Shown here: positions 2,435-51,291 of the stretch, in pieces | How the letters are laid out: every line of letters begins with the position of its first letter | How positions within the stretch are numbered: the first letter of the stretch is position 1 | NCBI GenBank assembly: GCA_044373675.1 | Contig: JBILPT010000001.1 | Coordinates: 52,807 to 116,806 of the forward strand | Length of the DNA stretch: 64,000 bases | Direction of reading: 5' to 3' | Origin: Crocinitomicaceae bacterium | Lineage (GTDB): Bacteria; Bacteroidota; Bacteroidia; Flavobacteriales_D; Crocinitomicaceae | The notes under the pieces: generated by a model | The model's input: only the letters and a program-made list of their open reading frames with translations | Told to the model about the DNA's origin: nothing | Databases searched by the model: none | Made by a program: the position numbers and the translations under genes

Positions 2435-2453
2435 ATCACTTAAATCAAAAAAA

Positions 2454-16583: not shown

Positions 16584-16594
16584 TATTAAATTAT

Positions 16595-16628
16595 AAAAAA
16601 GGCTATCGATTAAAAACCGATAGCCTTT
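16595..16628 (-). terminator. Rho-independent terminator after the T9SS-secreted protein gene
   Basis: Arms GGCTATCG (16601-16608) and CGATAGCC (16618-16625), extendable to 11 bp with flanking A/T, 9-nt loop. On the minus strand it is followed by a U6 tract (plus-strand A-run 16595-16600). Confidence 0.7.
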
Positions 16629-16644
16629 AGATTAATTACTCTTA

Positions 16645-19206
16645 TTATTTATTTACAACTAATCTTTTTGTCAATGCATTACCATTGCTAGAGATTCTAA
16701 TTGAATATAAACCATTTTGAACATTTGTTGTATTGAATTCAGCAGTTTGAACTCCTGATTGTTCGATTGTGTTTGTTTGGATAATTCTACCCATTTGATC
16801 AATCATTTCAATTGTCACTGCCTCAATGTTTTGGTTATCAAATGCAACTGTAAAGTTCTCAGATGTAGGATTTGGATAAACATTGATGTTTTCAACTCCT
16901 GCTAATTCATCAATTGCTAAAGTAATTGCTACTGTGAAAGATTCTGTATCTGTACAGTTTCCGTTAATAGCAGTTAAAACAACTGTATATGAACCATTTG
17001 CTGCAAAAGCGTGAACTGGAGCATTTGCTGTTGAGTTTGTAAAATCCCCGAAATCCCAAGAGTATGAAGCAGCACCTGTTGAGGTGTTTGTAAATGTTAC
17101 TACGTTACCTGAAGTTGAGAATGAACCAGCAGCTGTTGGTGTTGCCGTGAAAGTTACTATCGTTGGAACAGAAGTTCCTACACCATCACAAGCATTAGAA
17201 TTTGATGTTATCACTGTAAAGTTACCAGATGCAGTTACTTGAATTGCTTGTGTTGTATCACCGTTAGACCACAAGTAAACGTCTGCAGTTGATGAAGTTA
17301 AAGTTACAGTTTCACCTGAACATGCTGCAGTTGCAGATGCGTTGATTGTTGGTACTGGTGCAGAACTAACATTTACTATAGTTGACGCTGAGGTTGCTGA
17401 ACAGCCGTTATTATTAGTTACAGTAACTATGTAAGAACCTGAGGTTGTTACTGTGATAGCAGCAGTTGTAGCATTAGTTGACCAAGTATTTCCATTTGTT
17501 TCAGATGAAGTTAAAACTACTGATCCACCAGTACAGAAAGATGTATTTCCACTAGTAGAAATTACTGGAGTTGAAGGAAGAGCATTAATAGTAACTGTTA
17601 TTGCTACTCTTTGACTTTCATCATTATTAGAATTAGCTTGAGAAACATAATAAGTGTAGACACCTGCTGTAGTAGTGCTAGGAACTGGTGCAGATACCAA
17701 TGGAGTTCCACCTGTTGGTACATCATACCATTTCAAAGAATTACCAGTAGAAGAAGTTGCTGATAAAATTGTAGCTGTAGCACCCTGACAATAAGTGTAT
17801 GAATTTATTGAAACAACTGGAACTGAAACACTAAAGAACTTCTGATGAGTAAATGAAGCACCTGAACCAGCAGCTGAACCAGCAGCTAAACGAGCATCTG
17901 GAGTAGACCCTAACGCTGGAAATAAATTCACCCAATTTACTTGAGCTAAAGTAGCAGTTGAGTCATTTCCTTTTACTGACCACCAGGATTGATACCAGGC
18001 TGTAGTTGAACCTCCTGTGTTCAATACTGTATTCGTATTGTTTGTAGACCAAGTTGGAGTTGCGAAGTTTGTTAAAATATTATTTGCGAATACAAGAGTA
18101 TCTCCGTTTACATTTGCAACAACTGGAGCGCCTTCAATTGACAAACCTTTTTCCCAACCTGTAATAATTGAATTAAGACAAGATGTTGCTGTATTTCTTC
18201 TCAAACGAAATGCTTTTTCAAATTTTTCTCCTACAGGAAGTGCTATTGTTCCATTGCCTTTAGGACCTACTATTGTAATATTTGAAAAAATTGGTGCTGT
18301 TTTAGGTTGTGCTGCAGAACCTGCTGCATCATTATCTGTTTCAAAACAGTTTGAATCACCAGGAGCATCTGACAAATTTTTATCTCTAATTGCCAATCCA
18401 AATTGGATTTTACCTCTATATCCAAAATCAGTATCAAAATCATCATCTAAACCTCTGTAAGCAATAAGATACTTACAATTAACAGTTCCTCCGAACCACT
18501 CAAAGGAGTCATCACCACAAAAAGAAACCTGTATATGATCAATTGTAGTTCCCGAGCCTACAGAACCGAATGTTAAACCATTTAATTCTTTGTTAGGCTC
18601 CAGAGGAATTCCTGAAAATTCAATTCTACAATATTTCATTACTCCAGAATTATCGTTATCGAAACTTCCGCCATACTGCGAGTCAGTTGTTGGAACTATT
18701 CCTTCAATGTTTGCAACTCCGCCAGGCTGGTTGTTTTTTGCTAAACCTAAGATAACCACCCCGCCCCAATCACCTGGAATTCTATTTCCAATAGATTCAT
18801 TTGATGTAAACACAATTGGATTAGAAGCTGTACCAGCAGCATTAATTTTTGCTCCTCTCGTAATAATTAAAGTTCCTTGCGTATTCTTGTCACCACGAAT
18901 AATTGTCCCTGGAGCAATTGTTAAAGTTGCATTGTTTTTTACATACACTTTATTTTGCAGCAAAATAATACCACTCCAAGTTGTATTTGTAATTATGTCT
19001 GCAGAAACAGTTGATAATGTTGCAGGATAAGTTGTATTTTGTGGATCGAAATTTGACCACCCTGCTGTCCAGTCTGTAGCCGAAGTTCCATCAGTAATTG
19101 GAAAAGCTCCTTTGTAGTTAGTTGTTGTCCAAAATGCATCTTGAGCGTTTAGGTTAAGACCAAAGCTAAAGACCAAGCATGCTAAGTAAATGTTTTTCTT
19201 TTTCAT
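16645..19206 (-). CDS. Secreted multidomain protein: N-terminal ~450 aa beta-helix-like region, Ig-like repeats, PKD domain, T9SS type A C-terminal sorting domain
   Basis: Signal peptide. Two ~60 aa repeats (FCTGGSVVLTSS... / ACSGETVTLTSS...). PKD signature FTNTSTGAASYSWDFGD...GSYTVVLTA. Last 80 aa (nt 16648-16887) VYPNPTSENFTV...GLYSIRISS...KRLVVNK is a type A CTD. Confidence 0.8.
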   Translation of the reverse strand: MKKKNIYLACLVFSFGLNLNAQDAFWTTTNYKGAFPITDGTSATDWTAGWSNFDPQNTTYPATLSTVSADIITNTTWSGIILLQNKVYVKNNATLTIAPGTIIRGDKNTQGTLIITRGAKINAAGTASNPIVFTSNESIGNRIPGDWGGVVILGLAKNNQPGGVANIEGIVPTTDSQYGGSFDNDNSGVMKYCRIEFSGIPLEPNKELNGLTFGSVGSGTTIDHIQVSFCGDDSFEWFGGTVNCKYLIAYRGLDDDFDTDFGYRGKIQFGLAIRDKNLSDAPGDSNCFETDNDAAGSAAQPKTAPIFSNITIVGPKGNGTIALPVGEKFEKAFRLRRNTATSCLNSIITGWEKGLSIEGAPVVANVNGDTLVFANNILTNFATPTWSTNNTNTVLNTGGSTTAWYQSWWSVKGNDSTATLAQVNWVNLFPALGSTPDARLAAGSAAGSGASFTHQKFFSVSVPVVSINSYTYCQGATATILSATSSTGNSLKWYDVPTGGTPLVSAPVPSTTTAGVYTYYVSQANSNNDESQRVAITVTINALPSTPVISTSGNTSFCTGGSVVLTSSETNGNTWSTNATTAAITVTTSGSYIVTVTNNNGCSATSASTIVNVSSAPVPTINASATAACSGETVTLTSSTADVYLWSNGDTTQAIQVTASGNFTVITSNSNACDGVGTSVPTIVTFTATPTAAGSFSTSGNVVTFTNTSTGAASYSWDFGDFTNSTANAPVHAFAANGSYTVVLTAINGNCTDTESFTVAITLAIDELAGVENINVYPNPTSENFTVAFDNQNIEAVTIEMIDQMGRIIQTNTIEQSGVQTAEFNTTNVQNGLYSIRISSNGNALTKRLVVNK

Positions 19207-19279
19207 AATATTTTTTTTTAGTTCGATACAAAATTCAATATTTAAAGAAGTTAGTATGTTACACGATATTTAAATGTTC

Positions 19280-19319
19280 TTTAAGTTTAGGTTAAGAACA
19301 ATCGGTATTTTGTTAACAT
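19280..19319 (-). promoter_or_regulatory. Shared upstream element, copy A (upstream of the T9SS-secreted protein gene)
   Basis: Plus strand TTTAAGTTTAGGTTAAG-N15-GTTAACAT. Hexamer direct repeat with 11-bp spacing, then a third related hexamer 21 bp further on. About 73 nt upstream of the ATG at 19206. Confidence 0.5.
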
Positions 19320-19337
19320 TAGAAAAAGTGAGAATTA

Positions 19338-22193
19338 TTAGAAATTATATTTTAATGAAATAGAAACAGTTTGCCCAAACGTTATTTCTTGCCATGCACT
19401 GTCTGTGCCTTTATCATACTTCTTGTTTTTATTTATATCTTGGAAATAGATTAAATCTTGTGCAAGTAAATCCTTAACATTTAATTTTAATTCTAATTTT
19501 TTCTTAAACATTTTGGAAATCTGAAAATCGATTACATTTCTACCATTCTCCCAAACACTTGGTTCTTGAATACTACCAGCAATAGCAATTCGTTGACCAA
19601 CTAAATTATAAGACAAACTAAAATTAACATCCTTAGGAGCTGAATAATAAATACCCGCATTAATAATATAAGGAGATTGGCCTTGCAATGGCCTTGCGGA
19701 ATTAGTGTATTCTGCTTGACCTGCATACATACTTAAATCTACACTAGAACGAATAATTGAAGCATTTGCATAAAGTGTGATATCCTTTAAGAACGAAGTT
19801 GAATCCTTAGAATTTAAAAATCCAAGATTCATTCTGTATTCAAATTCAGCTCCATAATTCTCAGTATTTCCAACATTGTCATAATAAAGTTCTGGTGTTC
19901 CAGATGTTCCAGTTCGTAAAATCAATTCAATTGGATTGGTAAATTGCTTGTAGAATGCCGAGACACTAAAAATTTGTCCTGCACCTGGATAAAATTCAAA
20001 TCTAGCATCATAATTATTAATTGTTGCTCGTTTTAATGTGGGATCCCCTGATGTTAAATTATCATTCAAGAAATTGTAAAAGGAAAATGGCGCCAACTCT
20101 CTAAATTCAGGTCGAGAAACTGTTTTTGACGCACTCAAACGAAAGTTTATTTTATTTGTAAGAGAATAAATTAAATTCACGGAAGGTAAAATATCAACAA
20201 CAGTTGTATCTATATTTTGCTCAAGATTAGAACCAAATTCTATGTATTTAAAATTCTGGCGATATGACTCTATACGAGCACCTCCAACAATTCTAAGGTT
20301 TTTAGCAACTTTTGTATCGAACATAGCATAAGCAGCATTTAATAAAGAGAATGCTTGGTAACTGTCATCTACATTTGTTCCTTCTTCTAATTTAAATCCA
20401 CCTTGCCCATCTGCCATTAAACCCAAATTTGTATTTGAAAAGATTTGATCTTCAGGTAGTAATAATAATTGGTCATTAAACCCTAAGCTCCCTGATGGAT
20501 CGTATTTTGAAAAACCTAAATTTCTCGATTCGAAAGAACGCGTCCGATATTGATTCATACCACCTATTTTAAGCTCAGAATTTGTATTCAAGATTTTAAG
20601 AGGAATAGAAAGATCATATTTCCCACTTACTATTTTTTCATTTAGCAGCGACCAAAACATATTTCCAGCACCAAGAGTTGAAATATCATCATTTTGAATC
20701 ACTGCAGCAAATGGAAGTGTGGTATCAGTCTGCTGGTATACTGTCCTTCTTAGAAAAGGGATTTCTCGTTTTACATCGCTAATACCAGCTATCCATTTAA
20801 ATTTCATTTTATTTTTAAATTCATGATTACCAAGTAATTGAGAACTCAGAAGCTTGTTTTGCGTATACCAAATATTTGTAGATTTCTCAGAGAAAACTGA
20901 TTCAATATCCATATCTCGTTTTCCATTCCGAACATTCACTTTATCATCTGAGGAAAGCGAATAAAGTGTTTTTAATTGAAGGGAATTATTTTTGTTTAGT
21001 TTATATTTCATATTAAACATCGCACTGTTTAATACAGACTGAGTATACGCTGAATCTTTTAATTCATTTTTAGTTATTACCCCTACTTCTGATTCTTCAA
21101 ATTCTCTTCTTGTGACTTTATTAAAACTCATGTTACTTTGGTAATTGTAAGCAAATACATAGCCGAAATTTCGCTCCTCAGCTAACTTAATTGTTTTACC
21201 GATGCTGTATTGCAAATTTAAATTTGGTAAAGCCACACGACTATATGTCCCCCAACTACTTGGGATTGATTGCGCATACTCTGCTTTTTGAAGAGCGGAA
21301 AGATTATTGAATTCTTCTGTTGATGGTAAACCAGATGGTAGTGCTCTTGAAGATGAGCTAAAACCCAAAAAGTCTGTTTTACTTCCATCGTATGTTTTAA
21401 AATCTTTAAAAGTTGTAATTAGATTGTAAGAACTTCCTATTTGAATACTTTGAAAATCATTTTCCTTGGGTTCAGTTGTATTAATATCAATTACACCGCC
21501 AGAAAATTCTCCTGGTAAATCTGGTGTAGCTGTCTTAATAATTACTAAATTATCCAACATGTTTGAAGGGAAAATATCAAAAGAGAAGGCCTTTCGATCA
21601 CTTTCGGAACTTGGAAGTGGATCACCGTTAATTAATGCAAAATTGTAACGATCACTTAAGCCCCTTACAACAACAAATTTATTGTCCTGTACACTAGCTC
21701 CACTAATTCTTTTTAAAACATCTGAAGCTTTTGAATCGGGAGTCTTTTTAAATGTCTCCGATGAAATTCCATCTACAACTGTTGCACTATTTCTCTGTAA
21801 ACGTAATATTTCAGTTGTTGATTCTCTGCTAACTTTTGCTTTGACAGTAACAGGACCAAACTCTAAAACAACTTTATCCAAGGGAATATTTAAAACTAAA
21901 TTCTCGTTTTCTTTTAGTTTTATTTCCGTTAAAATTAAGTTGTTATATGTTTCATTTCGAACCTCCAATATGTAAGTTCCTGCGCTCAAACCTTTCAAAG
22001 AATAATTTCCGTCGCCATCTGTTACAGCACCTTTTCCAAGTCCTTGAAGAATTACTTTAGCACCAAATAAAGCTTCATTCGTTTTAGAATCTGTTATTTT
22101 TCCGCTTAAGGAAGCATTTTGAGAAAATAAAAAAACATTGAAAAAACAAACAAAAACGAGGTTTAATATAGACTTAAGATGCATAGTAGACAA
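19338..22193 (-). CDS. TonB-dependent outer-membrane receptor with N-terminal carboxypeptidase-regulatory-like domain
   Basis: CarbopepD_reg-like SGKITDSKTNEALFGAKV...DGDGNYSLKGLSAGTYILEV. Plug VVDGISSETF...VVVRGLSDRYNFALINGDPLPSSESDRK. C-terminal beta-barrel ending in F. The ORF-track start at 22193 is TTG. The ATG at 22184 (MHLKSILNLV...) is more likely. Confidence 0.88.
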   Translation of the reverse strand: MSTMHLKSILNLVFVCFFNVFLFSQNASLSGKITDSKTNEALFGAKVILQGLGKGAVTDGDGNYSLKGLSAGTYILEVRNETYNNLILTEIKLKENENLVLNIPLDKVVLEFGPVTVKAKVSRESTTEILRLQRNSATVVDGISSETFKKTPDSKASDVLKRISGASVQDNKFVVVRGLSDRYNFALINGDPLPSSESDRKAFSFDIFPSNMLDNLVIIKTATPDLPGEFSGGVIDINTTEPKENDFQSIQIGSSYNLITTFKDFKTYDGSKTDFLGFSSSSRALPSGLPSTEEFNNLSALQKAEYAQSIPSSWGTYSRVALPNLNLQYSIGKTIKLAEERNFGYVFAYNYQSNMSFNKVTRREFEESEVGVITKNELKDSAYTQSVLNSAMFNMKYKLNKNNSLQLKTLYSLSSDDKVNVRNGKRDMDIESVFSEKSTNIWYTQNKLLSSQLLGNHEFKNKMKFKWIAGISDVKREIPFLRRTVYQQTDTTLPFAAVIQNDDISTLGAGNMFWSLLNEKIVSGKYDLSIPLKILNTNSELKIGGMNQYRTRSFESRNLGFSKYDPSGSLGFNDQLLLLPEDQIFSNTNLGLMADGQGGFKLEEGTNVDDSYQAFSLLNAAYAMFDTKVAKNLRIVGGARIESYRQNFKYIEFGSNLEQNIDTTVVDILPSVNLIYSLTNKINFRLSASKTVSRPEFRELAPFSFYNFLNDNLTSGDPTLKRATINNYDARFEFYPGAGQIFSVSAFYKQFTNPIELILRTGTSGTPELYYDNVGNTENYGAEFEYRMNLGFLNSKDSTSFLKDITLYANASIIRSSVDLSMYAGQAEYTNSARPLQGQSPYIINAGIYYSAPKDVNFSLSYNLVGQRIAIAGSIQEPSVWENGRNVIDFQISKMFKKKLELKLNVKDLLAQDLIYFQDINKNKKYDKGTDSAWQEITFGQTVSISLKYNF

Positions 22194-22420: not shown

Positions 22421-23464
22421 ATGATTAAGATTTATCGAACTATTACTATAATTATAATGTCCTATTTAAATCTTTTATTTTTATCAGTAGCAATTTTTTG
22501 TTATTCAACTTCTTACTCCCAAAACAAAGTAGTATTTATTGAAGGAGAAGCACAAGGAACAACTTATCACATTACCTATTACGACAAGCAAAATCGTAAT
22601 TTTGAAGATGAAATTGCAAAACTCTTATTTGAATTTGATTTATCACTTTCAACCTACAATCCAAATTCTATTATTTCTAAAATAAATAATAATGAAAAAA
22701 ATGTTGTGCTTGATGACTATTTTCTAAGATGTTTTAAAAAAGCGAAAGAGTTATGGAAGAATACAAATGGGGCATTTGACCCAACCGTATATCCATTGGT
22801 AAATGCGTGGGGATTTGGACCAAAGGAAAAAATTGTGGTTACAAAAGAAAAAATAGACAGTATTTTAGCATTTGTCGGTTTTGATTTAATCAACATTAAA
22901 GAAGGAAAAATAGTAAAAACGGATCCCCGAGTTTCACTTGATTTTAATGCTTTTGCACAAGGATATTCTGTTGATATTGTTCGGCAATTTTTTAATGCTA
23001 AGAATATTGACTCCTACATCATTGAAATTGGTGGAGAAGTTTATGCAAAAGGACTAAACGACAAGGATTTTTGGTTAGTTGGGATAGAAATTCCTATTGC
23101 CAATCAAAAAAGTTTAAATTCTTATCATACAATTGTAAAACTTGAAAATAAAGCGATTGCAACTTCTGGAAATTATAGACGCTATATTGTAGAAAATGGC
23201 GAAAAAATAGTGCATCATATCGACCCTAAAACTGGATATCCAACAAAAAACAATTTACTAAGTGTTACGATCGTTTCAGACTCATGTATTATTTCAGATG
23301 CAACTGCAACAGGAATTTTGGTTATGGGATTGAAAAAAGCAAGAAAATACCTTAAAAAAAATAAGGAAATTGAGGCTTTGATAATTTACATGGATAGGAG
23401 AGGAATCTATAAAACTTTCCTTTCAGATGGTTTTCAAAAGTTTATTGTTAGCACAGAAAAATAA
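22421..23464 (+). CDS. apbE: FAD:protein FMN transferase (ApbE family)
   Basis: ApbE motifs GTTYHITYY, FDPTVYPLVNAWGFG, AFAQGYSVD, IEIGGEV, ATSGNYRRY, HHIDPKTGYP, SDATATGILVMG. The start could instead be the ATG at 22460. Confidence 0.88.
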   Translation: MIKIYRTITIIIMSYLNLLFLSVAIFCYSTSYSQNKVVFIEGEAQGTTYHITYYDKQNRNFEDEIAKLLFEFDLSLSTYNPNSIISKINNNEKNVVLDDYFLRCFKKAKELWKNTNGAFDPTVYPLVNAWGFGPKEKIVVTKEKIDSILAFVGFDLINIKEGKIVKTDPRVSLDFNAFAQGYSVDIVRQFFNAKNIDSYIIEIGGEVYAKGLNDKDFWLVGIEIPIANQKSLNSYHTIVKLENKAIATSGNYRRYIVENGEKIVHHIDPKTGYPTKNNLLSVTIVSDSCIISDATATGILVMGLKKARKYLKKNKEIEALIIYMDRRGIYKTFLSDGFQKFIVSTEK

Positions 23465-23507
23465 AGTGCTTAATTACTTCTGGAGAAGAATTTGAAAATA
23501 GTTAAGC

Positions 23508-24080
23508 TTAATCTTTCTTTTCAGGATTTTCAATAATTTCAGCGATTAATGGATTCCATGTAAGTGAAATCACATCAAAATTAGCATCTGCTGCTGGAGA
23601 CTGTGCATCGGCATTTGGACCTTTCACAAATGAAAAAGACCTAACTACTGTTCCATTTGCACTGTGATTCCAAGTCTCTTCAATGGAAATTTTATAAATA
23701 CCATCAGGGAGAAGATTCCCATTAACATCAGTTCCATCCCATGTAACTGATCTATTACCAAAACTTGCTAAAGTCGCGCCAGTGGTTGCACTAACAACAT
23801 TGCAGTTTGGAGCAATTGCATTTGAAGCAGCACCACCTGAATTAACCGCCCAAGTTTGTAAATGATCTCTCGTAACCGAGCCAACATTTCTAGATATTGT
23901 TTTTACAAATTGACCTAAATCTGATTGAATCCAAACCGCGAGAACGTGTTTACCATAATTATTATACGTTGCAGAAGCTGGTTTACTTACTTCATTAAAA
24001 CTAAATGATAATGTCCCTGCTGATTGTGCTATTCCAGAAAATGTAAATCCTAATGAGATAAAAAATGCGATTTTTTTCAT
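23508..24080 (-). CDS. Secreted DUF2271-like protein with candidate FMN-attachment motif
   Basis: Signal peptide (FSGIAQS). Pattern HVLAVWIQ...VVSATTGATLA...VTWDGTDVNGNLLPDGIYKISIEE resembles DUF2271 as I recall the family. TGAT motif at nt 23772-23783. Confidence 0.6.
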   Translation of the reverse strand: MKKIAFFISLGFTFSGIAQSAGTLSFSFNEVSKPASATYNNYGKHVLAVWIQSDLGQFVKTISRNVGSVTRDHLQTWAVNSGGAASNAIAPNCNVVSATTGATLASFGNRSVTWDGTDVNGNLLPDGIYKISIEETWNHSANGTVVRSFSFVKGPNADAQSPAADANFDVISLTWNPLIAEIIENPEKKD

Positions 24081-24101
24081 GTTTTATTATTTTAAATTTA
24101 A

Positions 24102-24446
24102 TTAATTATTTTTTTTGCCTTGATTTATCCAGCATTCTACACGTTGAATAACGCTGTCTGGCAATGCATATCCAATATTAAAGCCATCTCTTGGCATCAA
24201 CTTATAACCACTATTTCTCATTGCACCAATAATAGCAGAAGAATTAGATGAAATATTTGCATGATTTGTAAGAGAATATCCATTCTGATTGTCATGACAG
24301 CCTGCACAATTATTCTGAATGAGTGGTAGAATCTCATCGTTAAAAGAAACAGTGTCTGAACAATTAGCATCTGCATAAAATTCAGCTTTATCTTTTTTGC
24401 AACTACAAAAAATTAATAGAGAAAGTATAAATATGCTAGATTTCAT
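24102..24446 (-). CDS. Small lipoprotein with c-type haem-binding motif (CXXCH)
   Basis: Lipoprotein signal LLIFCSC. CAGCH at nt 24294-24308 (ILPLIQNNCAGCHD). Downstream LMP...LP...I..V..WI..G pattern resembles planctomycete-type cytochrome c (PSCyt) domains. Confidence 0.6.
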   Translation of the reverse strand: MKSSIFILSLLIFCSCKKDKAEFYADANCSDTVSFNDEILPLIQNNCAGCHDNQNGYSLTNHANISSNSSAIIGAMRNSGYKLMPRDGFNIGYALPDSVIQRVECWINQGKKNN

Positions 24447-24831
24447 TTTTTTTGATTAATGGTGAAAGGGCTAGCCAAAAAAGTGGAAAAATAAAGTACA
24501 AAGGAATTACAAATCCAGGATAAAATTCAGTCATTTCCAATGTCTCTGGGAAATCTTCCTTCATTATTGGAAATAGAATGCTTCCTAGAGTTGCAAAAAC
24601 AAGAACTATATTAAATATAATAGTGCCGAATTTTGGTGCTAATCGAGTACTGAGAAAACATAAACCGGATACGCTTAGTCCTACAGTAAAATAAGTTGCT
24701 ATAATTTTCCAAAGAGGAAGTATCAGAGAAAAGTTTGCCATTACCTCATAGTATTTGGTCACATAAACAGCTGCTCCAAGAGATGAAATTAAGGAAACTA
24801 CTAAACCCAAAAGAAAATAAGACTTAAACAT
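24436..24831 (-). CDS. Hypothetical integral membrane protein (about 4 TM helices, no histidines)
   Basis: Four hydrophobic stretches. Tightly packed in the operon: 1 nt after the YceI gene and an 11-nt overlap with the cytochrome-like gene. No recognised family. Confidence 0.55.
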   Translation of the reverse strand: MFKSYFLLGLVVSLISSLGAAVYVTKYYEVMANFSLILPLWKIIATYFTVGLSVSGLCFLSTRLAPKFGTIIFNIVLVFATLGSILFPIMKEDFPETLEMTEFYPGFVIPLYFIFPLFWLALSPLIKKNEI

Positions 24832-24832
24832 G

Positions 24833-25372
24833 TTATTTTTTTTCTGCAGGTAGATTAAAAGAAACTTTCATAATATCTGGAACGACATCGCTCTTTTTAC
24901 CAATGTTAAAATCCATTCTATTTACATTAATACTTCCTGAAAAAGAAATAGCATTTCCAGACCCGCTTTTCTTAGCCTTAACAACATAAACTTTGCTTGT
25001 CCCTTTGAGCGTTAAGTCACCTGTGATTTTATACAAATCACCTTCTTTTTCTACTGTTTTTGACACAAACTTGATATTTGGGTATTTTTTGGCATCAAAC
25101 CATTCTTCTGTTTGTGCTTTTTTATCTCTCATACCGTTTCCAGTTTTTATCGAGGAAATATCAATTGATAAATTAAATTTTGAAGTCTCTAAACTTTGCT
25201 CATTAAATTCGATTGTGCCTTCCATTTTATTAAAAGAACCTGAAGGATCTGCACTCTTAAATTTAAGAGAGAAAGCGTCTGTAATTTCAAAACGATCTAT
25301 TGGAAGAAAAGCTAGAGAAGTACTTATAACAAGTAAAAAAATGTAAGAGATGATAAGATAATATTTTTTCAT
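24833..25372 (-). CDS. YceI-family (polyisoprenoid-binding lipocalin-like) periplasmic protein
   Basis: YceI pattern G.F....G.IEF......S.F...IDISSI.TGNGMRDKK....WFDAKKYPNIKFVS...Y.ITGDLTLKG. Confidence 0.85.
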   Translation of the reverse strand: MKKYYLIISYIFLLVISTSLAFLPIDRFEITDAFSLKFKSADPSGSFNKMEGTIEFNEQSLETSKFNLSIDISSIKTGNGMRDKKAQTEEWFDAKKYPNIKFVSKTVEKEGDLYKITGDLTLKGTSKVYVVKAKKSGSGNAISFSGSINVNRMDFNIGKKSDVVPDIMKVSFNLPAEKK

Positions 25373-25382
25373 AATTCAAAGA

Positions 25383-26270
25383 TTAAAATTTACGAGCTAC
25401 ACAAAAACCGAACCTAAATTGCCCTTTCAACCAATTTTCTGTAGTGTAAGGTATAAATTGAGTTTCACCTAAACCACCAGAATTAGTAAAATTGACAGTA
25501 AAGTTGTGCCCAAAAGTAAACCACTCCAAAGCAATACCTAGACTATTCTTATAAAAACTTGAAGGGCGAAATTGTTCATTGTGAAAAACATGATAGTATT
25601 CAGCAAGTATTGCAAAGCGACTACTAATTTTCAAGCGAAATGCGCTTCCAAGAGCAAATAGTGTATTTTGATCATTTTGTGTAACATAATTTCGGTGAAC
25701 AAGCGTTGGAACAAGAGCAAGGGAAAATCGCTCGCCAAAATGTTTTGCTAAATTAAGCTGAGTAAAATAAGCTAGTCGATGAGAAGCTTTTGGAAAAAAA
25801 CTAACGTCAGATTGAAGCGTTGAACTTTTCATGTAGGTAAAACTAGAACCTGAAATCACAGTCATAGAAAGAGGTATACTGCCTTTTTTTTGCTCAAGGA
25901 CTTTGTATTTTAAAAATCCATCTAAAAGCGAGCGATAAGGAGCTCCTGTTCCTTTAGCTCTTCCAAATCCAAGCATGAATTTATCACTTACACCATATTC
26001 TATTGCTATTCTCATGTCTGAGAGGTAATCAAAACCAAACATATTTTGGTATCCACCATTTGGTCCTGAAAAATCCCCGAAGCGATGTTCAATTCTCATT
26101 TCATATGTTCCTTTTGAAAGTGTTTCATTGGAATGGCCATTTATTATTCGAGAAGAGGAAAATGTTATTGGTTCTTCAAATGGTATTTCGGATTCATTCG
26201 AAGTCTGCGCGAAAAATAAAGGTGATGCAGCTAGAAATAAAAACGTAAAAAAGGATAAAGAGAAATTCAT
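25383..26270 (-). CDS. Putative outer-membrane beta-barrel protein (DUF5777-like)
   Basis: Signal peptide. RIINGHSNETL.KG.YEMRIEHRFGD...FGFD pattern, alternating amphipathic strands, C-terminal aromatic residue (F). Confidence 0.55.
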   Translation of the reverse strand: MNFSLSFFTFLFLAASPLFFAQTSNESEIPFEEPITFSSSRIINGHSNETLSKGTYEMRIEHRFGDFSGPNGGYQNMFGFDYLSDMRIAIEYGVSDKFMLGFGRAKGTGAPYRSLLDGFLKYKVLEQKKGSIPLSMTVISGSSFTYMKSSTLQSDVSFFPKASHRLAYFTQLNLAKHFGERFSLALVPTLVHRNYVTQNDQNTLFALGSAFRLKISSRFAILAEYYHVFHNEQFRPSSFYKNSLGIALEWFTFGHNFTVNFTNSGGLGETQFIPYTTENWLKGQFRFGFCVARKF

Positions 26271-26388
26271 TTTTTTTGGTAAAATTAAAAAAAATACTGA
26301 TTGACTTAAAAAAATTACAGCTTTTTGTTTTAAGCTATTTTGGGCTTTATGACATATAAACCTTAAATTAATTTGACTTAAAATGACG

Positions 26389-45197: not shown

Positions 45198-45205
45198 TAA
45201 TTTTG
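45198..45205 (+). promoter_or_regulatory. -7 promoter box for the nqr operon
   Basis: TAATTTTG, 27 nt upstream of the ATG at 45233. Confidence 0.4.
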
Positions 45206-45232
45206 TGCAGAATTTATAAAAACACTCTCTTC

Positions 45233-46594
45233 ATGTCACGATTAGTCAGTATTCACAAAGGCTTAGACATTAGGTTACAAGGATTAGCGGAAAAGCAGCT
45301 AAAAATTTTACCGAATTCAAGAATAATTTGTGTAAGTCCCTTAGACTTTCATGGTTTAAATCCAAAATTACTTGTTAAAGAAGGTGATTCTGTAAAAATT
45401 GGTGATTCTCTTTTTTTTGATAAAACAAATGAGGCGGTTCAATTTGTGACTCCAGCAAGCGGAACTGTAAAATCAATAATTCGAGGTGAAAAAAGAAAAA
45501 TTTTACAAGTTTTAATCGAAACTAGTGAAAATCAAGAATATAAAAATGGATCAGCCGTAGATGTAAGCAAACTTTCTTCTGAAGAATTAAAAACAAAAAT
45601 GCTTGCTTGTGGTTTGTGGCCTTTTATAAAACAAAGACCCATAGATGTAATTGCTGATCAGAATCAAGAACCAAAAGCAATATTTGTTTCAGCATTTGAT
45701 AGTTCGCCTCTAGCGCCAGATTATAATTTTATCTTGGAGGGCAGACAGGAAGATTTACAAACTGGATTTAATGCTCTTTGCAAATTAACTAAAGGAAAGG
45801 TACATTTGAATATTGATGCTAAAAATGATAGCGCACTATTTTCAAATATTAAAGGAGTTGAAATAAACAAATTCGCAGGAAAACACCCTGCAGGAAATGT
45901 GGGTACACAAATCCATCATATTGACCCAATTAATAAAGGCGAATATATTTGGACAATCAATATTCAGGATCTTGTAATCATTGGTAATTATTTTAATACG
46001 GGAAAATTAAATGCTCGTAGAACAATTGCTCTATCTGGCTCTGAAGTAAGTGAGCCCCAGTATTACAATGTGCTTATCGGAACTAACCTAGATGGTATTT
46101 TAAAAGGGAAAGTTAAAGGAAATCATGTTCGTTTTATTTCTGGAAATGTATTGACAGGAGATCAAAAACAACAAAATGATTATTTAGGATATTATCACAA
46201 TCAAATTACAGTTATTCCTGAAGGGGACAATTATAAATTCTTCCTCACAAAAGGTTGGTTAGGACTTGGTTTTGATAAGTTTTCTAATTCGCGACTTTTC
46301 CCTACTTTTTTACTGCCAAAATCAAAACAATTTGTTTTAGATACCAATACTAATGGCGAGGAAAGAGCTTTTGTTGTAACTGGTGAACTAGAAAGAGTAT
46401 TTCCTTTCGATATTTTCCCAATGCAATTAGTGAAAGCTGCAATGACTAAAGATATTGATGGAATGGAAAATTTGGGGATTTATGAAGTTGCACCGGAGGA
46501 TTTTGCCTTGTGCGAATATGTTTGCACAACAAAAATTAATATCCAAGACGAAATCCGAAAAGGATTAGACATAGTTGCTGAAGAATGTTTGTAA
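45233..46594 (+). CDS. nqrA: Na+-translocating NADH:quinone oxidoreductase subunit A
   Basis: N-terminus IHKGLDIRLQG and first position in the nqrA-F operon. The ATG at 45233 is preferred because the TTG at 45203 lies inside the predicted -7 promoter box. Confidence 0.9.
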   Translation: MSRLVSIHKGLDIRLQGLAEKQLKILPNSRIICVSPLDFHGLNPKLLVKEGDSVKIGDSLFFDKTNEAVQFVTPASGTVKSIIRGEKRKILQVLIETSENQEYKNGSAVDVSKLSSEELKTKMLACGLWPFIKQRPIDVIADQNQEPKAIFVSAFDSSPLAPDYNFILEGRQEDLQTGFNALCKLTKGKVHLNIDAKNDSALFSNIKGVEINKFAGKHPAGNVGTQIHHIDPINKGEYIWTINIQDLVIIGNYFNTGKLNARRTIALSGSEVSEPQYYNVLIGTNLDGILKGKVKGNHVRFISGNVLTGDQKQQNDYLGYYHNQITVIPEGDNYKFFLTKGWLGLGFDKFSNSRLFPTFLLPKSKQFVLDTNTNGEERAFVVTGELERVFPFDIFPMQLVKAAMTKDIDGMENLGIYEVAPEDFALCEYVCTTKINIQDEIRKGLDIVAEECL

Positions 46595-46612
46595 TACTAA
46601 AAAAATAGAACA

Positions 46613-47815
46613 GTGAAATTCTTAGAGAATATATTACACAAAATGGAACCCAACTTCGTAAAAGGTGCGAAGTATGAAAAATGGAATCCTTTGTTTGAAA
46701 CAATTGCAACTTTTGCATTCACCCCAAAGTTAGTTACTACAAAAGGTGCTCATATTCGCGATGGCGTAGATTTAAAAAGAACCATGATGATGGTAATCAT
46801 CGCCTTAATTCCATGTTTACTTTTTGGAATTTACAACACAGGTCATTGGCAAATGGTTGCAGAATTAGGAAATAGAAATTTACCTTATTGGGAAAATGGC
46901 TTGAATAAGTTTTGGAATGGTTCCATTATTGTTCTTCCTTTAATTGTTGTTTCCTATGGTGTAGGGCTTGGAATTGAATTCCTTTTTGGAATGCTACGAG
47001 GTCACTCTTTGCACGAGGGATTTTTAGTTTCTGGAATGCTTATTCCTTTAACGATGCCCGCAGATGTTCCTCTCTGGATGGTTGGAGTTGCAACGGCATT
47101 TGCTGTAATTATAGGTAAAGAAATTTTTGGTGGTACGGGAATGAATATTATCAATGTAGCACTAACGGCTCGTGCCTTTTTATTTTTTGCGTATCCAACT
47201 TCTATGTCTGGTGATAAAGTTTGGATGGCCGGTACTGAAACGACTAAAGTTGATGGATTTACTGGTTCTACTGCGCTAGGAGATTTGGCAACTTTTATGT
47301 CAGATAAACCTGTTTTTCAAAATTTAAATGGCTTTACCTCTGAATATACCTTATCAGAATCTTTTATCGGAATGATTCCAGGTTCTGTTGGTGAAACGTC
47401 AACTTTAGCGTGTTTAATTGGTGCGGGGATTTTACTCATAACAGGAGTTGGATCCTTAAGAATTATGGCTTCCTTTTTTGTAGGTGGACTTGCAATGGGC
47501 TTATTATTGAATTTAATGGGTGGAAATCCTTATTTTGAACTACCCGCTGTTTACCACTTGGTAATTGGTAGTTTTGCCTTTGGTGCAATATTTATGGCAA
47601 CAGATCCTGTCAGCGCTGCTCAAACGGCAAAAGGAAAATTAGTTTACGGATTCCTTGGTGGTTTACTTGCAATCTTAATTCGTGTTTTAAATCCAGCATA
47701 TCCCGAAGGTGTTATGCTTGCAATTCTATTCATGAATATTTCTGCTCCAATAATTGATTATTATGTAATTCAAGGAAATATCAACCGTAGATTAAAACGA
47801 ATTAAAACTGCATAA
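46613..47815 (+). CDS. nqrB: Na+-NQR subunit B
   Basis: About 10 TM. FMN-attachment region VDGFTGSTALG (nt 47261-47272). GTG start with NqrB-like N-terminus (FLENILHKMEP...KYEKW). Confidence 0.93.
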   Translation: MKFLENILHKMEPNFVKGAKYEKWNPLFETIATFAFTPKLVTTKGAHIRDGVDLKRTMMMVIIALIPCLLFGIYNTGHWQMVAELGNRNLPYWENGLNKFWNGSIIVLPLIVVSYGVGLGIEFLFGMLRGHSLHEGFLVSGMLIPLTMPADVPLWMVGVATAFAVIIGKEIFGGTGMNIINVALTARAFLFFAYPTSMSGDKVWMAGTETTKVDGFTGSTALGDLATFMSDKPVFQNLNGFTSEYTLSESFIGMIPGSVGETSTLACLIGAGILLITGVGSLRIMASFFVGGLAMGLLLNLMGGNPYFELPAVYHLVIGSFAFGAIFMATDPVSAAQTAKGKLVYGFLGGLLAILIRVLNPAYPEGVMLAILFMNISAPIIDYYVIQGNINRRLKRIKTA

Positions 47816-47817
47816 AA

Positions 47818-48561
47818 ATGGCAATGGATAAAGAAAGTAACGCTTATACAATCATTTTCGCTACGATTATGGTTGTTGTTGTTGGAGGATTATTAGCGTT
47901 TTTGGCAATTAGTCTTAAAGAAAGACAAGAAGCAAATGGCGAAATTAAAAAAAAGATGGAGGTTCTTTCTGCCTTACTTTCTCCTGATGAAATGAAGAAA
48001 GTTTCAAGAGAAAACGCCGAGGCTGAATATGAAAAATACATTACTGGAGGTGTTGTTATCGATGTAAATGGAAAAGTTATAGCTGATGGAGAAAAAGGGA
48101 AAGATGCGGCTTTCCAAACAAATATTCAAGCTCAATATAAAGATAAAACTATAGCTGTAAACAAACGTACTTATCCTATGTTTACTGCAAAGAAAGATGG
48201 AAAAACACTTTATATTATTCCAATTGTTGGAATGGGACTGTGGGGACCTATTTGGGGAAATGTTTGCATAGCAGAAGATAAAAGTTCGATTGCAGGAGCT
48301 TCATTTGGTCACAAAGGAGAAACTCCTGGACTTGGGGCAGAAATTTCGCTTGGGTTTTTTATTGATCGCTGGGTAAAAGGTGATGAGAAAATCACTGATG
48401 AAAATGGTGACTATCAAAAATTTGATGTGGTAAAAGATGGAACTGGAGGTCAAACTACTAAAATTGATGGGATATCAGGTGGGACAATAACTTCAGAAGG
48501 TGTAGAAGAAATGATGAACCGCTGCTTAGTTCCATATACTGTTTATTTTAAAACTTTATAA
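47818..48561 (+). CDS. nqrC: Na+-NQR subunit C
   Basis: Single N-terminal TM. FMN_bind region with attachment motif IDGISGGTITSEG (SGGT at nt 48475-48486). Confidence 0.9.
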   Translation: MAMDKESNAYTIIFATIMVVVVGGLLAFLAISLKERQEANGEIKKKMEVLSALLSPDEMKKVSRENAEAEYEKYITGGVVIDVNGKVIADGEKGKDAAFQTNIQAQYKDKTIAVNKRTYPMFTAKKDGKTLYIIPIVGMGLWGPIWGNVCIAEDKSSIAGASFGHKGETPGLGAEISLGFFIDRWVKGDEKITDENGDYQKFDVVKDGTGGQTTKIDGISGGTITSEGVEEMMNRCLVPYTVYFKTL

Positions 48562-48570
48562 TTATTAAAA

Positions 48571-49260
48571 ATGAGTGAAAACCTTGCAAAAATAAAAGCG
48601 CCTTCAGAATCATTGTTTTCTAAAAAAAACAGGAAATTATTGATTGAACCTCTTACTAATAATAATCCTGTAACTGTTCAAGTTCTTGGAATTTGTTCTG
48701 CACTTGCTATTACGGTAAAAATGGATACTGCTTTAGTAATGGGACTGTCAGTTATATTCGTTACAGCGGCAGGAAATTATGTTATTTCTGCACTAAGAAA
48801 TATCATGCCGCCTCGTATTCGTATCATCGTTCAATTAGTTGTTGCTGCTGCATTAGTAATTATCGTTAATGAGATATTAAAAGCGTATTTACCAGATATT
48901 TCAGAACAACTTTCTGTATTTGTTGGTTTAATTATTACAAATTGTATTATCATGGGCCGTTTTGAAGCATACGCAATGGCAAATAAACCATGGCCATCTT
49001 TCCTAGACGGAATAGGAAATGGAGCTGGTTATGCAATTCTTCTTTTAATCGTTGCTTTTGTTAGAGAATTATTAGGATCAGGGAGCTTATTTGGAGTAAA
49101 AATTCTTGGATCTGCAGTTCCTGGTGAAGAAACTGGATTGTACACAATGGGTTACGTAAATAATAATTTAATAATTCTTCCTCCGATGGCTCTCATAATT
49201 GTGGGAATTATTATTTGGGTTCAACGTGCTAAAAATACTTCATTACAAGAAGAAAATTAA
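48571..49260 (+). CDS. nqrD: Na+-NQR subunit D
   Basis: NqrD/RnfE-type polytopic protein: NNPV.VQVLGICSALA, ITNCIIMGR. Confidence 0.93.
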   Translation: MSENLAKIKAPSESLFSKKNRKLLIEPLTNNNPVTVQVLGICSALAITVKMDTALVMGLSVIFVTAAGNYVISALRNIMPPRIRIIVQLVVAAALVIIVNEILKAYLPDISEQLSVFVGLIITNCIIMGRFEAYAMANKPWPSFLDGIGNGAGYAILLLIVAFVRELLGSGSLFGVKILGSAVPGEETGLYTMGYVNNNLIILPPMALIIVGIIIWVQRAKNTSLQEEN

Positions 49261-49282
49261 TTAACGAGTTAAAATTTAAAAA

Positions 49283-49990
49283 GTGGAAACTACCTTAGAT
49301 ATTTTTATAAAGTCTATTTTCTCGGAAAATATGATTTTTGCCTACTTTCTTGGAATGTGCTCTTATTTAGCCGTTTCTAAAACCGTTAAAACTGCCGTAG
49401 GATTAGGTGCAGCTGTTGTTTTTGTACTTGTCGTTACAGTACCATTGAACTGGCTTTTAGAAAATTATTTACTGAAAGCAGGTGCTTTAGAATGGTTAAA
49501 CCCCGCTTGGAAAGAAATTGATTTGAGTTTTATTTCTTTCATTATGTTTATTGCTGTGGTTGCTTCTGTTGTGCAATTAGTTGAAATGATTGTAGAAAAA
49601 TTCTCTCCAGCACTTTATGGTGCACTTGGAATTTTCTTGCCTCTTATCGCTGTTAATTGCTCTATATTAGGTGGCGCCTTGTTTATGCAAGAACGTCAAT
49701 ATTCAACTTTTTTAGATGTTACGGCTTTCTCATTGGGCTCTGGAATTGGTTGGGCAATTGCAATTATCTTAATAGCCGGTATTCGTGAAAAAATTCGTTA
49801 TTCCAAAATTCCTGCTCCACTGAAAGGTTTGGGAATTACATTTATAATAACTGGATTAATGGGTATGGCTTTCATGAGTTTTAGCGGTATAAAATATGTT
49901 GATGAAGTAAAGAAAGAAAAGCCAAAAAACTCAGAGTCTTCTTCCTCAAAAACAAATGAATTATCAACTTCTAAATCAAGTAAACAATGA
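49283..49990 (+). CDS. nqrE: Na+-NQR subunit E, with Ser/Lys-rich C-terminal tail
   Basis: Aligns from its GTG start with Vibrio NqrE as I recall it (FLGMCSYLAVSK, GIFLPLIAVNCSILGG, GIREK..YS..P..L.GLGITFI). Has ~32 extra C-terminal residues (KYVDEVKKEKPKNSESSSSKTNELSTSKSSKQ). Confidence 0.93.
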   Translation: METTLDIFIKSIFSENMIFAYFLGMCSYLAVSKTVKTAVGLGAAVVFVLVVTVPLNWLLENYLLKAGALEWLNPAWKEIDLSFISFIMFIAVVASVVQLVEMIVEKFSPALYGALGIFLPLIAVNCSILGGALFMQERQYSTFLDVTAFSLGSGIGWAIAIILIAGIREKIRYSKIPAPLKGLGITFIITGLMGMAFMSFSGIKYVDEVKKEKPKNSESSSSKTNELSTSKSSKQ

Positions 49991-51291
49991 GTTTAAGTTT
50001 ATTAATGACTGTAACGATTGTAATTTTTCTATTCGTTACATTATTACTTACGGCAATGTTGCTTTTTGCAAAAGCTAAACTTACTCCTAAAGGATTAATT
50101 TCAATCGATATTAATAATGGAGAAAGGATAGTTGAGGTAGGTGGAGGTTCAACTTTACTTACTACATTGAGCAATAATGGTGTTTTTTTACCTTCTGCTT
50201 GCGGTGGAGGTGGTACATGTGTTCAATGTAAATGCCAAGTTTTAGAAGGTGGTGGAGAAATTTTACCAACTGAAATACCACATTTTTCGAGAAAGCAAAT
50301 CGCAGATAATTGGCGTTTAGGTTGTCAAGTGAAGGTGAAAGAAAATATGAAAATTCATGTGGAAGAAGAAGTTCTTGGCATCAAAGAATGGGAGGCAACC
50401 GTTATTTCTAATCACAACGTTGCAACTTTTATTAAAGAATTTATTGTAGAAATTCCAGAAGACATGGACTATAAAGCTGGAGGCTATATTCAAATAAAGA
50501 TACCAGTATGTGAAGTAAAATATTCTGAAATGAACATCGATGCACATCCGCAAGATCATCCAGGAGAACTTGATAAATTTAAAAAGCATTGGGATAAATT
50601 TGGAATGTGGGATTTAGTAATGAAAAATGAGGAGGAAGTTATTCGTGCTTATTCTATGGCCTCTTATCCTGCTGAAGGAAGACGCGTTATGTTGAATGTA
50701 AGAATCGCAACTCCACCATGGGATAGAGCGAGAAATGCCTGGATGAATGTAAATCCTGGAATTGCATCTTCCTATATTTTTAGCTTGAAAGAAGGTGATA
50801 AAGCTATTATTTCTGGACCTTATGGCGAATTTTTCATCAATGAATCAGATGCGGAAATGATCTACATTGGTGGTGGTGCCGGTATGGCGCCAATGCGTTC
50901 TCACCTTTACGAATTATTCAAAACAATCAAAACAGGACGAAAAGTAACATTCTGGTACGGTGGTCGCTCGAAAGAGGAATTGTTTTATATCCATTATTTC
51001 AGAGATTTAGAGAAAGATTTTCCAAACTTTAAATTTTATCTTGTTCTTTCAGAACCTTTGCCTGAAGACAACTGGACTGAAAAGAAAGATATGAATGATA
51101 AAACTGGAGATGGATTTGTTGGATTTGTTCACCAAGCTGTAATCGATCAGTATCTTAACAGCCATGAATCTCCTGAAGACTTAGAATTCTATTTCTGTGG
51201 TCCTCCAATGATGAACAATGCAATACTAAAATTGTGTGATGAATGGGGAGTTCCTAATGAAAATGTGCGTTTCGACGACTTTGGAGGTTAA
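49987..51291 (+). CDS. nqrF: Na+-NQR subunit F
   Basis: N-terminal TM, 2Fe-2S ferredoxin motif CGGGGTCVQCKC...C, FAD/NADH-binding RAYSMASYP and GGGAGMAPMRSH. ATGA overlap with nqrE. Confidence 0.93.
   Translation: MSLSLLMTVTIVIFLFVTLLLTAMLLFAKAKLTPKGLISIDINNGERIVEVGGGSTLLTTLSNNGVFLPSACGGGGTCVQCKCQVLEGGGEILPTEIPHFSRKQIADNWRLGCQVKVKENMKIHVEEEVLGIKEWEATVISNHNVATFIKEFIVEIPEDMDYKAGGYIQIKIPVCEVKYSEMNIDAHPQDHPGELDKFKKHWDKFGMWDLVMKNEEEVIRAYSMASYPAEGRRVMLNVRIATPPWDRARNAWMNVNPGIASSYIFSLKEGDKAIISGPYGEFFINESDAEMIYIGGGAGMAPMRSHLYELFKTIKTGRKVTFWYGGRSKEELFYIHYFRDLEKDFPNFKFYLVLSEPLPEDNWTEKKDMNDKTGDGFVGFVHQAVIDQYLNSHESPEDLEFYFCGPPMMNNAILKLCDEWGVPNENVRFDDFGG

Follow-up and report, generated by a model that had tools for sequence, protein, structure and literature searches.

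A composite locus with a probable role in extracytoplasmic redox chemistry

We analysed a 64,000-nucleotide stretch of the genome of a Crocinitomicaceae bacterium (GenBank assembly GCA_044373675.1, contig JBILPT010000001.1, positions 52,807 to 116,806; hereafter the window, numbered from its first letter), in which the flavin transferase gene apbE faces five minus-strand genes at positions 22421-26270. The locus is composed of two units joined in one transcript: a cassette encoding a DUF5777 barrel, a YceI lipocalin, a protein with four transmembrane helices (4-TM protein) and a putative haem c lipoprotein (cyt c), and a flavinylation unit of DUF2271 and ApbE. Our preferred reading, to which we give a probability of about 0.55, is that the locus encodes an extracytoplasmic electron relay whose end is interchangeably a haem protein or a flavin mononucleotide (FMN) protein and was ancestrally displayed at the cell surface.

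The list of open reading frames (ORFs) places apbE on the plus strand (22421..23464), convergent with the DUF2271 gene and separated from it by a 43-nt spacer between the two stop codons. In order of transcription, the minus-strand genes encode the DUF5777 protein (295 aa, 26270-25383), YceI (179 aa, 25372-24833), the 4-TM protein (131 aa, 24831-24436), the haem lipoprotein (114 aa, 24446-24102) and the DUF2271 protein (190 aa, 24080-23508). Recomputed spacings between these five genes are 10, 1, -11 and 21 nt, and both these and the ORF coordinates reproduce exactly those of the original prediction, which had been made from the DNA sequence alone. The sole sizeable gap upstream is an AT-rich region of 118 nt (26271..26388, minus strand), the presumed promoter of the five-gene transcript; scans of this AT-rich DNA for promoters and terminators, with a sigma-70 model that is uninformative for Bacteroidota, gave no informative signal. 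All six genes are under purifying selection, with ratios of nonsynonymous to synonymous substitution rates (dN/dS) of 0.06-0.29 against two relatives. The identical gene string was recovered in several independent assemblies, and L007, a freshwater Crocinitomicaceae metagenome-assembled genome from Lake Mendota, matches the window at 98%.

Pfam searches and motif inspection upheld all of the family and feature calls made earlier for the five proteins, with profile searches supporting DUF2271 for the 190-aa protein and DUF5777 for the barrel. The original prediction had also read the five genes as a single operon; the inference of co-transcription stands, but not that of one indivisible five-gene unit, as the cassette mostly occurs without DUF2271 and ApbE. 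Its central idea, an exported redox module in which separate haem c and flavin proteins are serviced by ApbE, holds. It knew of no assigned physiological role in Bacteroidota for any of the five components; DUF2271, however, is an experimentally shown ApbE substrate (PMC8238504). It also overlooked that relatives of the 190-aa protein are cargo of type IX secretion, and that elsewhere the same slot is taken by an unrelated secreted protein with a haem motif.

The cassette and the flavin unit occur independently

Gene neighbourhoods were surveyed from two anchors. The DUF2271-anchored survey comprised 80 genome loci, 34 of which had at least 6 kb on both sides, and the cyt c-anchored survey comprised 80 metagenome loci, 17 of them with flanks of at least 3 kb; these subsets are referred to as well flanked. 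ApbE adjoins the DUF2271 homologue, in convergent orientation, in 50 of the 80 genome loci (20 of the 34 well-flanked loci). The genes for cyt c, YceI and DUF5777 are found in 11 of these 34, always all three or none, in at least four arrangements relative to DUF2271 and ApbE that include collinear, inverted and beyond apbE, and the flanking genes differ among the lineages that carry the module. The 4-TM gene is present in 6 of the 34, and a periplasmic tetratricopeptide repeat (TPR) protein, not seen in the window, is encoded upstream of DUF2271 in 13. A TonB-dependent receptor is adjacent in only 5 of the 34, and we regard it as lineage context rather than as part of the module. Among 24 loci without the cassette, only ApbE (11) and the TPR protein (7) recur within three genes.

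When cyt c was used as the anchor, YceI and DUF5777 were found in 17 of 17 well-flanked loci and the 4-TM gene in 16, and DUF2271 with ApbE was adjacent in just one, from the species of the window itself. The four genes DUF5777-YceI-4TM-cyt c form an autonomous, conserved envelope cassette of Flavobacteriia-type Bacteroidota. The gene set of the original prediction is thus conserved in other genomes, but as a composite of two units.

Neither a PepSY-like transmembrane protein (PF03929/PF16357) nor DUF4198 is among the neighbours in the window. PepSY-like proteins, DUF4198 and cytochromes were also not among the 25 most frequent families of 135 neighbour proteins from 24 related loci, and we set aside a hidden PepSY-like or other known transmembrane electron apparatus nearby, none being among the recurrent families of those proteins.

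Two variations on the cassette were observed. The Flavobacterium versions (L070, L072, L073, L081, L084) have no 4-TM gene, show the order DUF5777-cyt c-YceI and carry an extra small PF12869 (tRNA_anti-like OB-fold) protein upstream; in Flavobacterium aquatile (L073) there is no apbE within 10 kb and the SGAT motif is intact. Elsewhere (L020-L024, L043, L055, L125-L172), genes for an extracytoplasmic function (ECF) sigma factor and a TPR-containing putative anti-sigma factor are convergent with the cassette. This pair lies directly after the gene in the fifth position described below or, where DUF2271 and ApbE are present, after apbE; it looks as if the flavin unit had been inserted between the cassette and these regulators.

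The fifth slot holds either a haem-motif protein or DUF2271

In the other cyt c-anchored loci the cytochrome gene is followed on the same strand by a gene for a protein of ~290 aa with a signal peptide, an invariant GAPxxxxCTxCH motif and a type-A tail for the type IX secretion system (T9SS). Its domain is choice-of-anchor V (NF041895, E ~1e-25, above cut-off), also matched by Reeler (PF02014, ~1e-7), and the T9SS model TIGR04183 scored above cut-off in three of the six choice-V proteins scanned. This gene, and not that of the TPR protein that we had considered as the fifth cassette gene, is the one that follows the stand-alone cassettes. Throughout the choice-V family (L107-L174, e.g. L116:8343-9209, plus strand) the CTxCH motif, M95 and H190 are invariant, and the proteins are candidates for T9SS-exported c-type haem proteins. 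Two tandem choice-V copies are present in L165 and L166.

Across all cassette-bearing loci, the fifth slot is occupied by choice-V/CTxCH in 49 and by DUF2271 in 34, with both in none. Of the 34 DUF2271-type cassettes 28 have ApbE as a neighbour, compared with 0 of the 49 haem-type cassettes. In profile-profile comparison (hhalign) the two partners share the T9SS tail only (94%), and homology between the DUF2271 and choice-V domains was not detectable outside it. The fifth slot is a non-homologous displacement between two T9SS-tailed proteins with cofactor motifs, and ApbE travels only with the flavin version. Such a swap fits the redundancy of flavinylation and cytochromes described for flavinylation-associated clusters in PMC8238504.

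A predicted flavoprotein that has lost its secretion tail

Covalent flavinylation by ApbE feeds extracytoplasmic redox chemistry. The window's ApbE matches PF02424 with an E value of 2e-81 (273.8 bits, cut-off 25.6), covers positions 2-266 of the 266 in the profile and has an N-terminus (MSYLNLLFLSVAIFCYSTSYSQ) that is hydrophobic on inspection; other gene callers start the protein at Met13 (22457), giving 335 aa. The 190-aa protein matches DUF2271 (PF10029) over residues 41-145 with an E value of 2e-8 (34.3 bits against a cut-off of 27.3), as well as FlgD_ig. Alignment and direct inspection place the [S/T]GA[S/T] flavinylation motif, already noted as TGAT in the original prediction, at T100-G101-A102-T103 (codons at 23772..23783, minus strand). 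In an alignment of 21 homologues A98, T100, G101 and T103 are invariant, and 82 of the 84 homologous ORFs in the 80 reference-genome loci carry [ST]GA[ST] at the equivalent position. We predict from this motif that the 190-aa secreted protein is a substrate of ApbE and carries FMN on Thr103. The pairing of ApbE with DUF2271 is already published: flavinylation of a DUF2271 protein by its cognate ApbE at the motif threonine is experimentally established, with mutational proof in a homologue (PMC8238504).

A T9SS type-A sorting domain (PF18962 / TIGR04183) ends ~70 of the 84 homologous ORFs, most of which encode 260-300 aa, but no such C-terminal domain is present in the window's protein, nor in its nearest relatives. 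Collinear alignment with the tailed homologue of L011 (269 aa, 81% identical) reveals in the window a stop codon and then a deletion of ~240 nt. Inside the 43-nt spacer, beyond the DUF2271 stop, the alignment leaves a 24-nt vestige of the start of the sorting domain (23477..23500, minus strand), which is identical to L011 at 18 of 24 bases, a level that 0 of 20000 random 43-mers of the same composition reached. The tail-less gene is not decaying, with a dN/dS of 0.19 against another tail-less relative (71% identity). By this alignment, the 190-aa protein is a tail-less derivative of a T9SS cargo family.

Very large homologues of 440-1060 aa with 2-5 [ST]GA[ST]-like motifs are encoded in L023, L027, L033 (five motifs) and L076, mostly with a T9SS tail, L033 being the exception. 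These are candidates for multi-flavinylated surface proteins.

The putative haem c lipoprotein

The 114-aa protein has a lipid-bearing cysteine at residue 16, a CAGCH motif at residues 47-51 and an axial Met84-Pro85. The c-haem motif had been pointed out in the original prediction, and its CxxCH is invariant down to 23% identity; across 25 cytochrome homologues (23-99% identity) C16, C47, C50, H51, M84 and P85 are all invariant. Aligned to cytochrome c6 structures, the family profile matches them in register at both CxxCH and MP, with a best PDB profile E value of 9e-4. We accept the protein as a putative mono-haem, class-I-like c-type cytochrome lipoprotein, cytochrome-c-like but belonging to no named family. 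Directly after the lipid cysteine, residues 16-20 ('C-x-K-D-K') are nearly invariant among close homologues and may be a sorting or tether signal; the string is presumably unlike the acidic surface-export signal of Bacteroidota lipoproteins.

The DUF5777 barrel, YceI and the 4-TM protein

The first gene product matches DUF5777 (PF19089) over the whole profile (positions 1-247 of 247, E 4e-74, 249 bits), and an AlphaFold2 (AF2) model predicts a 12-stranded beta-barrel (predicted local distance difference test, pLDDT, 72). Foldseek searches with this model returned only generic outer-membrane barrels (KdgM, NanC, OmpG, FapF, LpxR) and no specific relative from which a function could be drawn. 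Between homologues of 24-96% identity H62, R63, D81, R104, K121, Q127, H192, N194, R212, Y225, H255, N263 and R293 are invariant. These polar residues, which include three histidines and several Arg, Asp, Asn and Gln, are located in strands, and suggest a specific site in the lumen and not a general pore. A flavinylated barrel like DUF3570 was rejected, as DUF5777 has no [ST]GA[ST] motif, only TGAP. The same TGAP string is conserved in DUF5777 ('KGTGAPY', residues 105-111) and in choice-V ('KTGAPGE', residues 45-50); it resembles [S/T]GA[S/T] but ends in proline, and may be a coincidence or a common recognition element.

The YceI family binds polyisoprenoids and quinones. The window's member is a periplasmic lipocalin of 179 aa (PF04264, E 4e-32, 112 bits), whose solved relatives, with E values from 1e-17 to 1e-10, include 5IXH (1.6e-17), 1Y0G (5.6e-17) and 1WUB; we take 5IXH to be a Burkholderia Bcn-type lipocalin, although its deposition names only a YceI-like domain protein.

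The 131-aa protein belongs to no Pfam family, and its own family is small, with 42 representative clusters among 1.84 billion proteins; many versions of the cassette lack its gene. The AF2 model is a four-helix bundle of four transmembrane helices (pLDDT 95.9) and found no fold match in the PDB (best E ~1); by this model it is a novel fold of a small, uncharacterised inner-membrane family. A comparison with the cytochrome b561 partner of YceI, drawn in the original prediction, fails, and a degenerate cytochrome b561 was ruled out, there being no fold match and no conserved histidine. The same prediction was right that the window's protein lacks histidine, inspection giving a count of zero, although most relatives carry one in 'PLHF', so that the lack is lineage-specific. 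At two otherwise conserved polar positions, 33 (Asp in 'DFS') and 113 (His in 'PLHF'), the window's protein has Asn and Tyr, and both positions are polymorphic among relatives of 96-98% identity (L007-L011). As they vary within the window's own species cluster (N/D and Y/H), Asp33 and His113 were rejected as essential ligands.

Other genes of the window

NqrB and NqrC are the classical substrates of ApbE, and the complete operon for the Na+-translocating NADH:quinone oxidoreductase (Na+-NQR), nqrA-F, lies 22 kb from apbE (45203..51291, plus strand; Pfam annotation of the identical contig). The flavinylation site is DGFTGST in NqrB (217-220) and DGISGGT in NqrC (220-223), the variant motifs being TGST and SGGT, not SGAT. 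A single ApbE was found within the window. It probably serves NqrB and NqrC too and is shared, not dedicated to this locus; because nqrA-F with these sites is encoded in the window, apbE need not be devoted to the operon that it faces.

Pfam annotation also identified porV (51794-53071) and porU (Peptidase_C25; 53131-56955) on the minus strand, and porP/sprF (57077-58048) and a gene for a 905-aa protein with an FGE-sulfatase domain (58100-60817), which we guess to be GldJ-like, on the plus strand. Because porV, porU and porP/sprF are present, the organism has the T9SS that DUF2271 homologues use. Further T9SS cargo is encoded at 10635-12893 (plus strand), a 752-aa protein with choice-of-anchor L, Calx-beta and a CHU_C (T9SS type-B) tail. 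Three minus-strand genes (15891-22193) run divergently from apbE. The first encodes a TonB-dependent receptor (19338-22193) that begins with a CarboxypepD_reg domain, the second a T9SS-tailed beta-helix/PKD protein of 853 aa (16645-19206) and the third a response regulator of the OmpR type (15891-16583); the set is kept in the close relatives L001 and L093 and is not a general partner of the module. At 667-4218 (plus strand) lie, in a row, genes for phytoene/squalene synthase, NUDIX, PTPS, DNA photolyase and an AhpC/TSA peroxiredoxin, a light and oxidative-stress stretch typical of pigmented surface-water Bacteroidota.

An electron relay and its alternatives

Our preferred reading would have ApbE act in the periplasm, linking FMN covalently to Thr103 of the DUF2271 protein. 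The redox-active members of the relay would be the haem c lipoprotein and its terminal partner, which is FMN-DUF2271 in the window, and electrons would pass between the two; in general the terminal protein would be either a choice-V/Reeler protein with a CTxCH haem motif or, together with ApbE, FMN-DUF2271. In most lineages the T9SS would export this protein, so that it is displayed on or released from the surface, and in the window's lineage, with the tail lost, the relay would end in the periplasm. YceI would hold a lipophilic carrier of the isoprenoid quinone type, by analogy with its family, in which there are a polyisoprenoid-bound structure of TT1927b, a ubiquinone-8-binding homologue cited in PMC9113575 and a functional pairing with cytochrome b561 (LcoA-BcnA). 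The barrel, with its lining of His and Arg, would be the outer-membrane component. A possible role of the 4-TM protein is that of a membrane anchor or a quinol contact; the gene is dispensable, being absent from the Flavobacterium versions. The families, their conserved motifs, the alternation of partners with its exclusive ApbE linkage, the tail loss and the purifying selection are computational results; we infer that haem and FMN are attached, in which direction and sequence electrons flow, what YceI, the barrel and the 4-TM protein do, and what the physiological substrate is. As substrate we favour Fe(III), or else some other oxidant outside the cytoplasm, whose reduction would serve assimilation, because of the known associations of DUF2271, the TonB receptor and ECF-sigma/FecR neighbours of some loci, and the iron-responsive region of F. 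psychrophilum. Our second choice of role is quinone-mediated antioxidant protection of the envelope, because of the LcoA-BcnA precedent, superoxide dismutase genes nearby in a few loci, and the ECF sigma/anti-sigma pairs that many stand-alone cassettes face.

Several observations weigh against a relay. Neither an electron source nor an electron acceptor is encoded in the locus, and there is no evident inner-membrane carrier: the 4-TM family has no invariant histidine or other invariant ligand residue, and no PepSY, MsrQ, NapH, DsbD or NQR-like gene was found adjacent in the family listing of the 135 neighbours. With only 12 strands, the barrel has too little room to hold a cytochrome inside it, and the haem lipoprotein falls below the Pfam cut-off, with Cytochrome_CBB3 at 18.5 bits against 27. 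DUF2271 and ApbE often occur with no cassette nearby (23 of the 34 well-flanked loci), and apbE may be kept mainly for NQR. As the window's flavoprotein has no T9SS tail, this organism does not depend on displaying it at the surface. Finally, all locus counts given here are uncorrected for phylogeny and the loci are not phylogenetically independent.

A bolder form of the preferred reading would make the cassette a new electron route across the Bacteroidota outer membrane, ending in a T9SS-displayed haem protein or flavinylated terminal protein, in which an isoprenoid quinone delivered by YceI into or beside the His-lined barrel possibly replaces the multihaem wire; this we put forward tentatively and consider doubtful.

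The same components could instead form an envelope antioxidant system, a Bacteroidota counterpart of the proteobacterial pair LcoA (cytochrome b561) and BcnA (YceI). Quinol held by YceI would quench superoxide or lipid peroxyl radicals in the periplasm and outer membrane, with the haem c lipoprotein and the FMN or haem partner re-reducing that quinol, and the barrel would give reach to outer-membrane lipids. We think this unlikely. In its favour, among solved structures 5IXH is closest to the window's YceI, mutants of bcnA and lcoA build up peroxidised lipid (Naguib 2022, PMC9113575), and the YceI homologue that binds ubiquinone-8 is cited in that study. In several loci a gene for an Fe/Mn superoxide dismutase lies near the cassette (cluster c23; L087), although these are few and related and the proximity may be inherited synteny. 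Many stand-alone cassettes also face an ECF sigma/anti-sigma pair, as expected of an envelope-stress regulon. The usual T9SS export tail of the terminal partner is left unexplained by this scheme, the cassette has no peroxidase-like or thiol component, and its 4-TM protein is not a cytochrome b561.

The juxtaposition might also be coincidental or regulatory, with apbE the housekeeping maturase of Na+-NQR, DUF2271 a mere neighbour and the cassette unrelated to both. This is what nqrA-F with intact NqrB and NqrC sites and a single apbE in the window would lead one to expect, as would the frequent occurrence of the cassette without DUF2271 and ApbE, and of these two without the cassette. It is nevertheless improbable: the whole cassette lies within 6 kb in 11 of the 34 well-flanked DUF2271 loci and in several gene orders, against a chance expectation that we estimate roughly at ~0.3% (two single-copy loci in a genome of 3-4 Mb), the fifth slot alternates strictly between two T9SS-tailed proteins, ApbE being found solely beside the flavin type, and the DUF2271 gene is spaced 21 nt from the cytochrome gene. 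Equally improbable, in our judgement, is a non-redox role in uptake or trafficking of a hydrophobic or tetrapyrrole ligand, such as acquisition of haem or an iron chelate beside a TonB-dependent receptor, with the barrel as channel, YceI as periplasmic carrier and the CxxCH proteins binding or relaying haem. The window and its close relatives do have such a receptor gene running divergently from apbE, and in Flavobacterium (L073, L072) the module comes straight after a sigma/FecR/TonB-dependent-receptor set, but adjacency is limited to 5 of the 34 well-flanked loci and is rare around stand-alone cassettes. The DUF5777 fold does resemble the small substrate-specific barrels KdgM and NanC, and for F. 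psychrophilum an iron-responsive region with genes of the flavinylation type has been noted (PMC9331221). In a passive ligand relay, however, neither a covalently flavinylated protein nor an ApbE would have any role, and the combination of CxxCH and an axial Met-Pro marks an electron-transfer cytochrome.

Comparison with known systems and significance

DUF2271 is mostly found in clusters with PepSY-like proteins and DUF4198, for which iron reduction has been proposed (Meheust et al. 2021, eLife, PMC8238504). Like the PepSY-like/DUF2271/DUF4198/ApbE clusters of Proteobacteria, the window has apbE beside a secreted, extracytoplasmic DUF2271 protein with an [S/T]GA[S/T] motif, and a TonB receptor is occasionally nearby in those clusters too. 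Unlike them, it has neither a PepSY-like protein nor DUF4198, and the DUF2271 subfamily found here is typically T9SS-tailed and linked to DUF5777, YceI, the 4-TM protein and the haem c lipoprotein. The main text and text supplementary tables of PMC8238504 do not mention YceI, DUF5777 or a T9SS tail, the text supplementary tables of PMC9331221 contain none of these terms, and full-text literature searches did not find DUF5777, YceI with ApbE, a bacterial Reeler with haem, or this combination or swap. The redundancy described in PMC8238504 is similar in that, at the equivalent position, orthologous clusters have either a cytochrome or a flavinylated protein accompanied by ApbE; here the exchange is between DUF2271 and choice-V/Reeler CTxCH proteins, with a common T9SS tail and in Bacteroidota.

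The locus shares with LcoA-BcnA and E. coli yceJ-yceI (Naguib et al. 2022, PLoS Biol, PMC9113575) a YceI lipocalin beside a small membrane protein and a cytochrome and, by implication, the principle that a haem protein services a carrier of lipid or quinone. It differs in that the haem protein would be a c-type lipoprotein and not a dihaem 4-TM b561, that its 4-TM protein has another fold with no conserved haem ligands, and that it further includes an outer-membrane barrel and a terminal protein with a T9SS tail. In concept it is also comparable with the porin-cytochrome conduits of extracellular electron transfer (MtrCAB, PioAB and PCA types), whose gene sets likewise combine a periplasmic haem protein with an outer-membrane barrel and a redox protein at the surface. 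There is no sequence relationship with these systems, however, and each protein here has one CxxCH (mono-haem), unlike the deca-haem proteins of the MtrCAB type. The barrel has 12 strands against ~26 and cannot enclose a cytochrome, and the surface protein exits through the T9SS and can be a flavoprotein.

To our knowledge, catalogued DUF2271 systems mostly rely on a PepSY-like inner-membrane protein and stay periplasmic. The locus described here links ApbE flavinylation to type IX secretion, through a DUF2271 subfamily that is normally exported by the T9SS. If the relay is real, it would include the first T9SS cargo with a redox cofactor known to us, and would offer a candidate route by which common Bacteroidota of lakes and soils might reduce iron, humics or oxygen species outside the cell. 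Functions would also follow for DUF5777, the 4-TM family, choice-of-anchor V and YceI, each of which is without one in this phylum. The reading is directly testable in a cultured carrier, Flavobacterium aquatile LMG 4008. Should the route across the outer membrane prove true as well, it would mean extracellular electron transfer, with reduction of iron or humics, in abundant aerobic freshwater heterotrophs.

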